Origin: Eledone cirrhosa
Lineage: Eukaryota
Assembly: GCA_964016885.1 (NCBI GenBank)
Contig: OZ024749.1
Coordinates: 41,850,001-41,914,000, forward strand
Direction of reading: 5' to 3'
DNA: 64,000 nucleotides
The notes under the pieces were generated by a model. The model ran no database searches. It was not told the DNA's origin and saw only the letters and a program-made list of their open reading frames with translations. Every line of letters begins with the position of its first letter. The first letter of the stretch is position 1. The position numbers and the translations under genes are program-made. This document shows positions 46,101-55,100 of this stretch, piece after piece.

Positions 46101-49100
46101 TACATGTATACACACACCCACACACTCACAGACACACATACACACACACACACACACACACATATATATATATATATATTCTTGGATAAAGTCAATAGAC
46201 ATTTTGTTTCATGAGTTATTCTAAGGAAGAGAGTGGGGGTGGGTATATAGTGCCTATTGTTGTTGTAGTCCCTCCTAGGTAGCCTATAGGGATTTTATGA
46301 TGAGGTTGATACTATTGATGTTCAGTGTAGGAACCAGGGGTAGGGCACATTTCCTGTGGGGTGTTGAACTGTGGAGGAAATATTCCACATTCTCCTCTTT
46401 ATGAAAGGAATCTCCTGTTTGGATGATGATGATGGTGGGAACAACAATAATACTAATAACTATAATGATGACGACGATGATGGTGATGATAAATTATTAT
46501 TATTATTATTATTATTATTATTATTATTATTATTATTATTATTATCATTATTATAATTAGGGGGGTGGATTGGCAGTATCTGTAGAGCGTTGGACATGTT
46601 TTGTGGCCTATAGTTACGTCCCTTTACAGTCTGAGTTCAAATCCCGCCAAGGTTAGCTTTGCCTTTCATCCTTACGGGGTCGATAAAATAAAGTACCAGT
46701 AATACACTGGATAATTGCTGGCCCTGTGCCTAAAGTAGAAACAATTATTATTATTCAAAAACTTTGCCTTTCATCCTTACGGGGTCGATAAAATAAAGTA
46801 CCAGTAATACACTGGATAATTGCTGGCCTTGTGCCTAAAGTAGAAACAATTATTGAAATGGATAAGCAAATGGAGCAAACAAACCCAGATATTTTTTCTA
46901 CTCAATAAGGGGGAAAGAGTGTGTGAGTTAATCAATGTTGTTTGCCTGTTTCATACCGGAGTTGTAGATAAAGAACTTAAGAAAATAGAAAAGTACTAAG
47001 ACCTGGAATATGAAATACAGAGAATCCATGTTATCATCATCCCAATTGTAATAGAAGCCTTAGGGACAGTGACAAGAAGTTTGAACAGTTAGTTGAAGAT
47101 GTTGGATATAGAGGCTGAATTTCCTAATTCTGTAGAAAGCTTGTTTGTATGACACAGCAACGACAGTATGAAAGGTGTTAGATATACCTAAGGCTAGAAC
47201 GGCTTGAAGTTTAACTGGTTAGTTGAAGAAGTTGGTATAGAGGTGAATTTCCCTGACTCTTCAGAAGGTTTGTTTGCTTGGTACAGCATGAACCATATGA
47301 AAAGTGCTAGATGTGCCTAAGGTTGCAGTGGGCAGCTTGATATCTAGCAATCCAAATACCTGTAACAAGGAATAACTGAGTAAAGAGAGCAGATAATAAT
47401 AATAATGATTTCTACTTTAGGCACAATAATAATGATTTCTACTTTAGTTACTGACCAGATAAGCTACTGGCCAAATGAGCCACTGACCAGATGAACAACT
47501 GGCCAGATGAGCTATTGACCAGATGAACAACTGGACAAATGAATAACGGGATAGATGAGCTATTGACCAAATAAGCTACTCATCAGATGAACAACTGACC
47601 AGATGAACAACTGACCAGACCAAAATCTGATCAGATGGTCACCAGATTATCTGGTTATTCAATCTGGTCAGATGAACGTCTGTAGTAGTATTAGTAGTGG
47701 TGGTGGTAGTAGTAATGGTTGTAGTAGTAGTGGTGGTGGTAATAGTGATGGTTGTAGTAGTAGTGGTGGTGGTGGTGGTAGTAGTGACAGTTGTACTAGT
47801 AGTGGTGGGTGGTGGTGGAGACATGGTTGTTTCATAAGGAATTAATGAGAAAAGCTGGTTGAAATCTGATAACTAAATATTTAAAGTATTAATGTACACA
47901 CACACATCCACCACACACACACATACATCCACCATACACACACACACATCCACCATACACACACATCCACCACACACACATCCACCATACACACACATCC
48001 ACCATACACATACACATCCACCATACACACACACACATCCACCATACACACACACACATCCACCATACACACACACACATCCACCATACACATACACACA
48101 TCCACCATACACACACACACATCCACCATACACATACACATCCACACACACATCCACCATCCACACACACATCCACCACCCACACACATACCATATGCAC
48201 ACACACATACAATCATGCACACCCACACACACACACATTCACATACTTTCTCTCTCTTACACATACTTATTTCTTGCTACAAACACAAATATGTTGCTAC
48301 ATGCACACATATTTGTTGTTACACACACAAACACGCACTCTCTCTCATATAGACATACATGTATTCACATATACACACACACACACTCTGTTTTTCTCTG
48401 TAAATATATATATATATATAGATTTATATACTTACTTATATATATATATATAGATTTATATACTTATATATATACTTATATATATATATATATATATATA
48501 TATATATATATATATATATATATATATAAGAACAGAAGATGGTTAAAGGAATTCCATGTATTTTATTATGCGCATTTCAAAAACAAATATCATGCAATAA
48601 TATTTGTGTTTTCATCAGATAAAACAGGAAGTATATAAATATATATATATATATTTATATACTTACTTATATATATACTTATATATATATATATATATAT
48701 ATATATATATATATATAAGTATATATATAAGTAAGTATATATATAAGTAAGTATATAAATATATATATATATAAGTATATATATAAGTAAGTATATAAAT
48801 ATACTTACTTATATATATACTTATATATATATATATATATATATAAGTATATATATAAGTAAGTATATTTATATATTTATATAAATCTTATATATTTATA
48901 TAAGTAAGTATATTTATATATTTATATAAATCTCTCTCTCTCTCTCTCTCTCTCTATATATATATATATATATATATTTATATACTTACTTATATATATA
49001 CTTATATATATATATATATATATATAAGTATATATATATATAAGTATATATATAAGTAAGTATATAAATATATATATATATAAGTATATATATAAGTAAG

Positions 49101-52100: not shown

Positions 52101-55100
52101 TCTGCGTGTGCATGTGTATATGTGTGTTTTTTTGTCATTGTAATCATTTTTATCAGTGTGGCATCAAGAATTAAATAAAAAGAAAAAAAAGGTCTTGTCT
52201 GCCAAAATGACATTGTAAGTGAAACAAGTTGTTGCTATATTTAACTTTAGAAGCAACCATCACCATCACTTAGAAACCACCACCACTGCCGCCACCATCA
52301 TCACTTGACAAGCATCATCATCACTTAAAATTCAGCATCAGCAGTACCATTATTTGAAAACCGCCATCAACCCTTGAAAACTCCCATCACCATTCCGCAA
52401 TAACCACCATCACTTGAAAAAAACCCACCACCATTATCTTATCATCCCTCAAAAACCACCAATATTATCACTCGAAAGCCACCCTCACTTGAAAACCACC
52501 ATCACCATCACTTAAAAAAACCCCACCATCACTTGAAAACCATCAGGATCATCCCCTGAAAACCAGCATCAGCAAAATCTTCCCTTGAAAACTATCATTA
52601 TCTCTTGATAATGGGCGGTGGATTGGCAGTATCGATAGAGGGTCGGACGTCATGCTTTGACGCATAGAGTTACGGCCCTTGCCATTCTGAGTTCAAATCT
52701 CGCCAAGGTCAACTTTGCCTTTCATCCTTGCGGGGTCGATAAAATAAAGTACCAGTAATGTACTGGGTAATTTCTGGCCTTGTGCTAATAGTAGAAACAA
52801 TTATCTCTTGATAACCACCATTACCATCATTTAAAAAAACCTGCCACCATCACCTCACTATCACTTGAAAACTACCACCATCATCACTTGAAAATCACCA
52901 TCACCTCACCATCACTTGAAAACCACAACCATCACCTTACCATCACTTGAAAACCACCATCACCTGAAAACCTCATCAAGCCATCAAATTCTCATCTGGA
53001 AAGAACTGTTAAAGAAATCAGAAACGTTATCTGTTGACTTGTGTTTCTTTAACTAAACAATACAATAGTCTCAGACGGCTGTTTAAATTATGTTCCCACT
53101 TTTTTTCCACTGTTATTTTAGTTGTATTTTGACTCTCTTTTATATGTATGTAAACAGTGTTGTCCTTTTTTCTCCTTCCCCTCCACCTGCCAACTCCCCT
53201 CTCCGCCTCAAGCCATAACACCCATACGACCTAATGATGTTGGGTGGATGGATGACTCAGTTTGTAAGTCTAGTATAGTAGTCATGCACTCTATGATATA
53301 ATAGATAGATAGATATCAACAGATGGTAACTGGATAGCTACAGTCTGGGCTGGTGCAACCATCAAGGCCAACTAGGCAGCTGCTTAGGGCACATTACTGA
53401 ACCTTAAAGGATGACTGTTTTATACATATTTGTATCAACAGATGGTAACTGGATAGCTACAGTCTGGGCTGGTGCAACCATCAAGGCCAACTAAGCTACC
53501 TCAGAGAGACACATTACTGAACCTTAACCCTTTAGCATTTAAACTGGCTTTATCTGGCCAGAATTCTCTCTCCTCTTTCTGTTCAAACTGGCTGTAACTG
53601 GCCACTTATACTTATGTTAAGGTATTGATCTCAAAATAAATAATATCAAAATCTCATAGATTCGATATTATGTGAGGTAATTATGTGAGGTAAAGCCTTT
53701 ACTGTGAAAATTTAATAGTAAATATAGAGTAATGTAAATGGTAAAGGAACATGGTTTAATACATATTTATGTCAACTGATGGTGATTGGATAGCTACAGT
53801 CTGGGCTGGTGCTACCATAAAGGTAAACTAGTTAGCTACGTAGGGCACATACCTGGGAGAATGGGGCACACATTGTAAAGCTAGTCTAGAGCTGGCACTG
53901 GACACAGTGTGTAGATTATGATTGGATATATATAGTGTGTAGATTTTGGCTGGATATATAGTGTGTAGATGTTGAGTGGGTGTATACAGTGTATGGATGT
54001 TGACTAGGTATATACATATATATATATATATATATATATGTATGTATGTATATATGTATATAAGAGCATTGGCCTTGCAATCAAAGGCCAATGCTCTTAT
54101 ATACATATATACATACATATATATATATATATATATATATATATATATATGTATATATATATATATATGTATATATATATATATATATAAGAGCATTGGC
54201 CTTTGATTGCAAGGCCAATGCTCTTATATACATATATACATATATATATATATATATATATATATGTATGTATATATGTATATAAGAGCATTGGCCTCTG
54301 ATTGCAAGGCCAATGCTCTTATATACATATATATATATACATATATATATATATATATGTATGTATATATGTATATAAGAGCATTGGCCTTGCAATCGAA
54401 AAGTTGTGAGTTCAATTCTCAGACCGGGTGATGTGTTGTTTCCTTGAGCAAGACACTTTATTTCACATTGCTCCAGTTTACTCAGCTGTAGAAATGAGAT
54501 GATAGGGACCGGGGTCCCTATCATTCCACTGCAAAGTGGCCGTGGAGGTGCCACGGCAAAAAAAGCACCCAGCACTCACTGTAAATGAGGTTGGTGTTAG
54601 GAAGGGCATCCAGCTGTAGAAATCAAGCCAGAATCAGTTCCCATCCCACCCTTGCAAGCAGGGAAAAGTGGACGTAAAATGATGATGATGATACAGTGTG
54701 TAGATATTGACTGGATATATATATATATATATGTAGGAGGTGAGTTTTATTGTAGTACAATAAAGCAATGCAGATATCAGATAAGAAGCACTCTACAGTT
54801 TGTAGGACTGGAGTATACATAATATATAAGATCAAAAGATGGTTAAATGAGTTCCATATATTTTATTATGCGCATTTCAAAAACAAATATCATCATGCAA
54901 TAACATTTGTGTTTTCATCAGATAAAATAGGAGGACATGATATGAAGGTTAAAAACACTTGTGGATAGTGCAGTTTTAATTAATATAGATATATACAGTG
55001 TGTAGATATTGACTGGATATATATATATATATATATACAGTGTGTAGATATTGACTGGATATATATATATATATATATATATATATATATATATATATAT

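Follow-up and report, generated by a model that had tools for sequence, protein, structure and literature searches.

Hammerhead-bearing segments at three loci

Four related segments on three loci (A; B, with the arms B1 and B2; and C; Table 1) were identified by a hammerhead descriptor and BLASTn in the window, by which we mean the whole 64-kb stretch of DNA analysed here. All four segments, which align with one another at 84–96% identity (BLASTn, E 1e-25 to 1e-71) and contain no coding sequence, have about 90 nt in common, and copies A, B and C diverge pairwise by 7–15%. No further members of this exact family were found elsewhere in the window. A first-pass annotation had described three copies of a ~250-bp element, and the six strings it quoted are all located in the window (GTAGGAGG... 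at 50055 and 54733; AAGATGGTTAAA at 48536, 50156 and 54836, and inverted at 50489; the helix II strings at 50422 on the plus strand, at 48598 on the minus strand, and at 50444/48579/50199/54879). The segments are indeed related, but there are four on three loci, with complete cores in A, B2 and C only. Nor is there a fixed unit: C has the proposed size (253 bp), but A measures 105 bp, and B2 245 bp over a different interval. B2 is inverted relative to the others, as had been noted for 50330–50515, but it starts at 50268.

Table 1. Segments, hammerheads and related motifs, in window coordinates
Feature	Position	Strand	Description
Copy A	48527..48631	-	105-bp 5′-truncated stub: leader (13 nt), hammerhead, 3′ segment D1 (38 nt); flanked on each side by (TA)n
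Copy B1	50055..50235	-	inverted arm, begins at helix II base; CUGAUG lost
Copy B2	50268..50512	+	245 bp: 147-nt pyrimidine-rich leader, hammerhead, D1; 3′ end at (TA)n
Copy C	54733..54985	-	~253 bp: ~60-nt leader, hammerhead, D1, tail D2
Tail D2 of B1	50055..50135	-	~81 nt; missing in A and B2
Tail D2 of C	54733..54812	-	4 mismatches vs D2 of B1
B junction palindrome	50236..50299		perfect 64 bp, centre 50267/50268; made up of the first 32 nt of each B arm
Hammerhead of A	48559..48626	-	type I; C3 at 48618; palindromic helix III AUGCGCAU; predicted cleavage 48567/48566
Hammerhead of B2	50407..50477	+	type I; C3 at 50415; predicted cleavage 50469/50470
Hammerhead of C	54859..54929	-	type I; C3 at 54921; predicted cleavage 54867/54866
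Relative E	18818..18880	+	complete hammerhead, sister family; 44.6 bits, E 1.7e-8; ~200-bp piece between (TA)n tracts
Relative F	29067..29113	-	half of a hammerhead, without core; 25/28 identity with E; directly adjoins the end of a LINE remnant
Relative G	43872..43930	+	complete hammerhead; same 3 bp + CxC + helix pattern; helix III AUAUAUAU

Whereas all copies have a common 3′ end at (TA)n, the three insertions have three different 5′ ends (3/3; leader lengths in Table 1). Without the tail, the shared 3′ end falls 38–43 nt beyond the cleavage site, with (TA)n reached after 38 nt in A and 43 nt in B2, as against 134–136 nt in the tailed C and B1. Across eight hammerheads or halves (A, B1, B2, C, the relatives E, F and G, and 34567), a simple repeat follows 34–55 nt past the cleavage site in six, the remaining two being B1 and C; the background probability of a simple repeat within 60 nt is 0.17. 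In two degenerate motifs, the distance is 95 and 158 nt. The earlier statement that (TA)n flanks each copy thus holds for every 3′ end, but not for every 5′ end: the B arms meet in the 64-bp palindrome, and C abuts a minisatellite unit. The latter copy sits in a region of ~28-nt minisatellites and is flanked on each side by (TA)n and the same 22-nt unit, which may represent a target duplication or a pre-existing array.

B1 and B2 are a single head-to-head insertion with a ~80-nt tail on one arm. Both arms read outward from one centre, are identical over 32 nt and then differ at three positions over 92 nt (two C-to-T changes at CpG, one weakening helix III). B1 has lost CUGAUG through a 121-nt internal deletion and retains helix II, GAAA, helix III, D1 and the tail D2, with its 3′ end at (TA)n. 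Nine fold-back palindromes were found in the window.

Hammerhead cores, their relatives and predicted folding

Judged by its sequence, the hammerhead motif itself is real. Six of the 28 CUGANGA motifs in the window pass a type I hammerhead descriptor, three of them within the interval from A to C, and block-wise dinucleotide shuffles gave any match in 0/200 (strict) or 4/200 cases (relaxed). A, B2 and C pass as type I, with CUGANGA, GAAA, a NUH core and helices I–III in order; B1, whose core is deleted, fails. A model search scored A, which had been used in building the model, at 89 bits and B1 at 59 bits. An Rfam scan of the 64 kb returned 0 matches at the gathering threshold and, for 48000–55500 at E ≤ 5, no hammerhead among the 150 listed of 183 matches, the low-scoring ones listed being mostly microRNA-type models on AT repeats or palindromes.

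Helix II comprises 14–16 bp, pair 4 of which is invariably a pyrimidine mismatch, and helix I has 8 bp, nearly all A-U. Pair 10.1–11.1 is A-U in A and C and G-U in B; both the bulged base after A9 and the G10.1–C11.1 pair of the consensus for Penelope-like elements (PLEs) are missing. The helix III of B2 reads AUGUGCAU, in which a single CpG has undergone a C-to-U substitution.

Outside the interval there are four further complete hammerheads. One of them, an unrelated hammerhead at 28435–28760, repeats the layout of B, combining an intact copy, an inverted coreless copy and a one-sided tail. Relative E is identical to C at 18/19 and 18/23 positions at the two ends, with a different distal helix II and the helix III AUAUAUAU. 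G (25.0 bits) and F (24.8 bits) score barely above noise, the first non-hammerhead hairpin reaching 24.7, and were accepted on evidence besides the model score (G passes the descriptor). As the flanks of E, F and G have no significant similarity to B2 or C (35–449/500 shuffles scored as high), the three are treated as sister families rather than as members of the A/B/C family. The pair-4 mismatch is CxU or CxC in six of seven relatives and UxU in the coreless B1.

Is the structure under selection? Among A, B2 and C, the 25 helix pairs carry seven one-sided changes and no two-sided ones (0/25), and all seven retain pairing (P 0.0005–0.008, depending on transition bias). The 3′ arm of helix II is invariant (0/14 columns vary), and all helix II changes are one-sided. 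That helix II stays paired is correct apart from the constant pyrimidine mismatch at pair 4, and the proposed selection on structure is hinted at by the seven retained pairings, albeit with no two-sided change among these copies. Two-sided changes appear only against diverged relatives elsewhere in the window: among the best seven of 40 model matches at E ≤ 2 (33 were dropped before pair counting), 11/25 pairs are two-sided, as compared to 0/500 shuffles and 1–3 pairs in slid controls, in an alignment that is fitted to the model, in which distal helix II is possibly non-homologous and the 5′ strand of helix I is absent from two rows. Selection on structure thus appears better supported across sister families than within A/B2/C. 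A/G differences account for 5/8 of the helix differences versus 0/7 in D1 (P 0.019). Such an excess would be expected of an ADAR signature, but is equally predicted by selection for pairing and by the A-rich arm, from which it is not separable here. G is possibly ancestral at pair 5, because E and F have G-C there.

As in PLE-associated dimer-type hammerheads, helix III is a short palindrome (8 nt) that is predicted to be unstable in the monomer, with a pair probability ≤0.001 in 5/5 monomer folds; the palindrome duplex amounts to -12.5 kcal/mol (A/C/B1) or -8.0 kcal/mol (B2). Since helix III is predicted not to form in the monomer, we are probably dealing with a dimer-type ribozyme. A single copy would be inactive, cleavage being predicted only where the helix III palindromes of two copies pair, which fits all four copies running unbroken through the cleavage site. 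The folds agree less well with this: helix I in whole-copy folds is poorly populated (0.00–0.09 in B2, C and E; 0.5–0.8 in A), and only one of four homodimer MFE folds (C) gives intermolecular helices I and III; A is joined via helix III only, and B2 and E are misfolded. As a candidate off-switch the tail is unsupported: helix II of C is unaffected by D2 (pairs 5–10 at 0.85–0.99 with and 0.87–0.99 without it), and the tail of B1, which pairs over 8 bp with the GAAA/helix III strand, lies on a coreless copy.

Origin of the segments

What kind of element left these segments behind? We consider it likely that they are 5′-truncated 3′ ends (pseudo-LTR or pLTR stubs) from retrotransposition of an endonuclease-bearing (EN+) PLE, in a host that is probably an octopus. 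The architecture gives good support to a PLE origin, through the common 3′ end, insertion at (TA)n, 5′ truncation of varying extent, an inverted copy that is likewise 5′-truncated, a tail on some ends and the helix III palindrome. The hammerhead lies in the 3′ terminal region near the 3′ end, and 5′ truncation, inverted copy, one-sided tail and microsatellite target all agree with EN+ PLEs, the tail being longer. Of the original proposal of a non-autonomous, PLE-derived or retrozyme family, the PLE part is well supported, but the three 5′ ends fit a truncated longer element at least as well as a non-autonomous one.

Extrapolating from published PLE biology, a source element located elsewhere would be transcribed, and its GIY-YIG endonuclease would nick AT repeats. 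Reverse transcription would begin near the 3′ end and halt early or switch template; the resulting stubs of 100–250 bp would in some cases be accompanied by a tail and a second copy in inverted orientation. Selection on structure would have acted in the source elements, with the genomic stubs probably decaying neutrally.

Several observations count against this reading, namely the length of the tail, the departures from the PLE consensus, the lack of Rfam matches, the predicted folds and the searches for a parent element. No PLE ORF, and hence no autonomous partner such as the first-pass annotation suggested looking for, was found in the window (Pfam scan of 150/151 candidate peptides, no GIY-YIG match); this is expected if the copies are truncated stubs. 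Five Pfam matches were obtained at E ≤ 0.01, four of them weak and judged unrelated. The fifth, a weak RVT_1 match, belongs to a LINE remnant (29085–30044), which by its motifs reads as CR1/L2 type, and was rejected as the autonomous partner. In the supplement of Craig 2021, six family motifs had no match and four further motifs no relevant match, although short motifs can escape in its wrapped lines. Among the matches listed, the octopus and cephalopod hammerhead literature does not describe the family, which the supplementary lists of earlier surveys may contain; an exact 23-nt pattern had 0 matches in prokaryotic genomes.

Alternatively, the copies could belong to a non-autonomous PLE derivative in its own right or be single non-LTR retrozyme monomers. 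Units of 250–400 nt would then be transcribed from tandem arrays at other sites, cleaved by their hammerhead and circularised, before PLE enzymes inserted them again. This we regard as unlikely. The copies do lack coding sequence and fall within the retrozyme size range, and dispersed monomers as well as retrozymes derived from pLTRs have been described (Li et al. 2026, 10.64898/2026.07.22.740005). D2 moreover shares a 9-mer with the 5′ side of the hammerhead and, over a 13-mer, is complementary to the helix II arm of B1 (this pairing was matched in 0/2000 shuffles, seven other pairings in 15–130/2000), which could be the relic of a second, decayed unit. However, no head-to-tail unit with two consecutive complete hammerheads, as the retrozyme label would imply, exists in the window, the same-strand copies being 1.4 and 4.5 kb apart; the three 5′ ends differ without circular permutation around the cleavage site; and no internal Pol III promoter or tRNA-like head was detected (0/23 window B-box matches inside copies; ARAGORN, 0 genes).

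A bolder joint reading, which we hold to be distinctly improbable, is a separate PLE hammerhead lineage, absent from the literature searched, with a new structural element at pair 4. Its hallmark would be a helix II that opens with three pairs (10.1–11.1 A-U or G-U) followed by the pyrimidine mismatch, kept across otherwise unalignable sister families, and the mismatch could replace the G10.1–C11.1 pair and the loop contact. In its boldest form, the element would be free, non-autonomous and RNA-propagated, with a tail that can act as an off-switch by pairing with the GAAA/helix III strand, and A/G differences opposite U would record A-to-I editing of the transposing RNA.

Could a single old insertion instead have multiplied in place, through segmental duplication or through slippage between (TA)n tracts? 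The clustering of three loci in 6.46 kb (P 0.017–0.028), the restriction of the exact family to these loci of the 64 kb, B1/B2 as a local inverted duplicate and the other fold-back palindromes of the window are in line with it. Yet the P value is post hoc, A, B and C have no non-repeat flank in common, their breakpoints and sequences have diverged, and PLEs are reported to insert into or beside existing copies (PMC6765202), making local copying very unlikely. The local proliferation proposed at first fares similarly: the clustering speaks for it, but with unrelated flanks and related hammerheads up to 30 kb away the case is weak. Host co-option, with ribozymes under selection at this locus, e.g. 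in an intron or long transcript, would agree with three intact cores and seven of seven retained pairings, but is hardly plausible given B1/B2 differences as expected from neutral decay, one arm without a core, similar stubs scattered in the window and no host exon identified. Finally, the chance of a random motif or assembly fold-back artefact is next to nil: despite AT- and microsatellite-rich DNA, the perfect palindrome and isolated folds of A and C no stabler than shuffles (z -0.5 and -1.25), no strict descriptor match arose in 200 shuffles, and the B arms differ by three substitutions, the 121-nt deletion and the one-sided tail.

Hammerhead-bearing PLE stubs are known and common genomic debris in animals, to which A, B and C, on the present reading, add one more family. 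With seven complete hammerhead-like motifs in 64 kb, none of which Rfam detects, motifs of this kind appear to be numerous in this genome and under-annotated. As natural variants with swapped helix III palindromes and a conserved helix II mismatch, the sister families lend themselves to tests of dimer cleavage.

Comparison with known hammerhead systems

The closest system are the type I hammerheads with small palindromic helix III in the pLTRs of EN+ PLEs (Drosophila willistoni, Aedes aegypti, Saccoglossus; Cervera and de la Pena 2014, PMC4209133), for which single motifs from truncated PLEs, opposite-strand pairs 100–700 bp apart, a long helix II and a palindromic helix III are described. Shared with these variants are CUGANGA/GAAA cores, type I topology, the long helix II, an 8-nt palindrome across helix III, no evident loop1–loop2 contact and mostly solo motifs with some opposite-strand pairs. 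Unlike them, the copies here have no bulge after A9, A-U or G-U rather than G-C at 10.1–11.1, and the helix II mismatch and helix lengths given above; in the PLE consensus (>80%) the bulged nucleotide and G10.1–C11.1 are present, with published exceptions closed by A-U.

PLEs that insert at (TA)n are described by Craig 2021 (PMC8557442) as truncated at the 5′ end, accompanied by a neighbouring truncated copy in inverted orientation and provided with a tail on one side only; among them is a Hydra-clade PLE of an octopus, which carries a hammerhead close to its 3′ end. What the hammerhead does during PLE transposition was called unclear. All these structural features recur here, and helix II of Hydra-1_Obim is likewise closed by A-U; the sequence, however, is different, with no motif match in the supplement, and the tail is ~80 rather than 30–40 bp long. 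Non-LTR retrozymes (Cervera and de la Pena 2020, PMC7229834; Li et al. 2026) are similarly non-coding and low in GC, carry type I hammerheads and in some cases need dimers, as predicted here, but form head-to-tail repeats of 150–450 bp, in contrast to the solo or head-to-head copies with variable 5′ ends. The SINE-like SM-alpha repeats of Schistosoma (PMC6765202) are also short, dispersed and equipped with a type I hammerhead; the copies here differ in having neither a B-box nor a tRNA-like head.

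Four related segments at three loci

What is the nature of the hammerhead-bearing repeats in this window? The first-pass annotation had proposed three copies of a ~250-bp element. All six strings that it quoted are present in the window and BLASTn finds related copies, but these are four segments at three loci with differing 5′ ends (A, B1, B2 and C; B1 and B2 being the two arms of locus B). They have ~90 nt in common, from helix II to one point 38–43 nt past the cleavage site, where (TA)n terminates A and B2; B1 and C run on past this point with a ~80-nt tail (D2), followed by (TA)n. 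The 5′ ends lie 13 nt, about 60 nt or 147 nt before the core. Pairwise identity over the shared core is 93% for A–C, 85–87% for B–A and 86% for B–C. A full type I hammerhead is present in A, B2 and C, comprising an 8-bp helix I, CUGAUGA, a 14–16-bp helix II, GAAA, UGCGCA (UGUGCA in B2) and UA. On each side of segment C stand (TA)n and one and the same 22-nt unit; as C lies within a minisatellite, this pattern does not establish a target duplication.

Read outward from 50267/50268, the arms of locus B are identical over their first 32 nt. The left arm then omits 121 nt, including CUGAUG, and resumes at the helix II base; further along, 3 of 92 positions differ, two of them by C-to-T at CpG. Because the arms differ by this skip and these substitutions, B is one head-to-head insertion of some age and not an assembly fold-back. 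The breakpoints of three coreless fragments (50235, 29113 and 28533) fall at or inside helix II, two right at its base, a pattern that may mark a stall or switch point of reverse transcription but in part reflects detection bias.

Hammerheads and motif-bearing segments in the window (for A to C, strand is that of the ribozyme sense)
Feature	Position	Strand	Basis or remark
A	48527-48631	-	BLASTn
B1	50055-50235	-	BLASTn
B2	50268-50512	+	BLASTn
C	54733-54985	-	BLASTn
E	18818-18880	+	A/B2/C model match
G	43872-43930	+	A/B2/C model match at noise edge; passes descriptor
F	29067-29128	-	A/B2/C model match at noise edge; coreless hammerhead half
Further type I hammerhead, other family, complete	34501-34575	-	34 nt before (TA)n
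Degenerate hammerhead	43210-43260	+	by eye; Hydra-clade-table style, final A of GAAA altered
Degenerate hammerhead	45795-45855	-	by eye; without helix I

Relatives and other repeats in the window

A structural descriptor passes 6 of the 28 CUGANGA motifs in the window and, at its strict setting, nothing in 200 shuffles; an Rfam search of the window at the gathering score recovered none of the hammerheads that pass. Searching the window with a model built from the A, B2 and C ribozymes recovers B1 plus E, G and F. For G and F, whose model scores lie at the noise edge, backing comes from the descriptor, the motif count (6 observed against 0.04 expected) and the identity of F with E (25/28). The sequence around the ribozyme in E, F and G does not align with B or C, and on this ground we treat these three as sister families.

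The window itself is AT-rich, non-coding, animal-like DNA with many microsatellites and dispersed repeats. Half-hammerhead F directly abuts a broken LINE reverse transcriptase remnant (29085-30044, -; RVT_1 E 5e-4), whose only named match among nine is an Octopus sinensis protein (65% identity), a higher-scoring match being without a name; from its motifs, we take the remnant to be CR1/L2-like. A peptide at 16851-17183 (+), with a weak NERD match alone, is by motif presumably what is left of an RTE-type LINE endonuclease. The window holds many copies of SINE-like repeats, from at least three families, with 23 B-box matches against 5.85 expected, and these SINEs resemble those of octopus. The LINE match and the SINEs together make an octopus the probable host. 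Inverted or fold-back pairs of SINE-like and other repeats, often adjoining (TA)n, lie at 49537-49944, 20941-21291 and 61733-62002, and further pairs at 54052-54397 (a SINE 5′ end repeated as a run of fold-backs), 60331-60381 and 17590-17740. An 18-nt stretch downstream of the degenerate motif at 45795-45855 (-) resembles tail D2 (E 0.03-0.05), and a short inverted repeat at 45505-45545 sets two CUGAUGA heads face to face. Another (TA)n-flanked repeat, in pieces at 17590-17740, 23699-23746 and 50670-50802, shows CUGAAGA at 23725 as well as an end resembling a GAAA-palindrome, and is possibly a further decayed hammerhead family.

Helix pairing and predicted dimer action

Helix II had been said to differ between copies while staying paired. 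Pairing is indeed kept across the helices of A, B2 and C (75/75 cells), but the 7 of 25 pairs that vary do so on one side only (none two-sided), helix II shows no variation in its 3′ arm, and its pair 4 from the base is always a pyrimidine mismatch. That 7/7 changes keep pairing has a P of 0.0005-0.008 depending on transition bias, for a structure drawn post hoc from the same sequences and with four changes from one lineage. Across seven rows (A, B1, B2, C, E, F and G), in an alignment fitted to the model, 11/25 pairs are two-sided, as against 0/500 shuffles. Read directly, pair 5 is G-C in E and F, G-U in B and A-U in A, C and G, and pair 4 is mismatched in 7/7 rows; helix III is one of two palindromes, either AUGCGCAU or AUAUAUAU. 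Of the eight helix differences, five are A/G opposite U; either selection or A-to-I editing could account for this, octopus RNA editing being described as unusually high (PMC5625713).

In monomer folds, helix III has a probability of ≤0.001 in 5/5, and its palindrome gives an 8-bp duplex between two molecules at -12.5 kcal/mol (B2: -8.0). Such modelling points to a ribozyme of the dimer type known from hammerheads of Penelope-like elements (PLEs), which reportedly cleave poorly even as dimers (PMC4209133). Less in keeping with this picture, most whole-copy folds show low occupancy of helix I, and the lowest-energy dimer is a full double hammerhead in C alone (1/4 folded); ribozyme activity is inferred. 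D2 of C contains a 13-mer exactly complementary to the B1 helix II 5′ arm (0/2000 shuffles, in one of eight comparisons), and could be what decay has left of an older ribozyme copy.

Probable truncated Penelope-like 3′ ends

A, B and C carry real hammerheads and are likely the truncated 3′ ends of PLEs, as their layout matches published PLE insertions point by point. No PLE ORF was recovered from the window, where 150 of 151 candidate peptides were scanned. A simple repeat follows within 34-55 nt at 6/8 hammerhead sites (background 0.17), with a P of about 0.0005 that assumes independence of sites that are not fully independent. At 28571 (+; C3) lies a hammerhead with a U3-A8 core variant and helix III ACCGGU, whose descriptor, weak alone, matches once in the window and at least once in 10/200 shuffles. 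It occupies 28435-28760 between TA-rich repeats, along with a second, inverted arm that lacks the core (28435-28533) and a tail confined to one of the arms, an independent example of the layout seen at locus B.

For the first-pass suggestion of local proliferation support is weak: the clustering of the three loci has a P of 0.017-0.028 and was chosen post hoc, and simple repeats are the sole sequence common to their flanks; PLEs are said to insert close to existing copies (PMC6765202). The first-pass retrozyme reading fails within the window, as a retrozyme by definition consists of tandem units and has two or more complete ribozymes in succession (10.64898/2026.07.22.740005; PMC7229834), though solo monomers are known and arrays may lie elsewhere.

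Octopus vulgaris has an abundance of PLEs, 31 families of which were recently active (PMC13282606). The main text of PMC8967140 makes no mention of ribozymes. No description of the A/B/C family was found in the parts of the literature searched. Like the PLE insertions described in PMC8557442, A/B/C show high 5′ truncation, an inverted 5′-truncated copy at the 5′ end, a one-ended tail and (TA)n targets. They likewise resemble the truncated PLEs of PMC4209133, which leave single hammerheads as well as opposite-strand pairs 100-700 bp apart. The class of hammerheads in PLEs is already known, and A/B/C probably represent an additional family within it.
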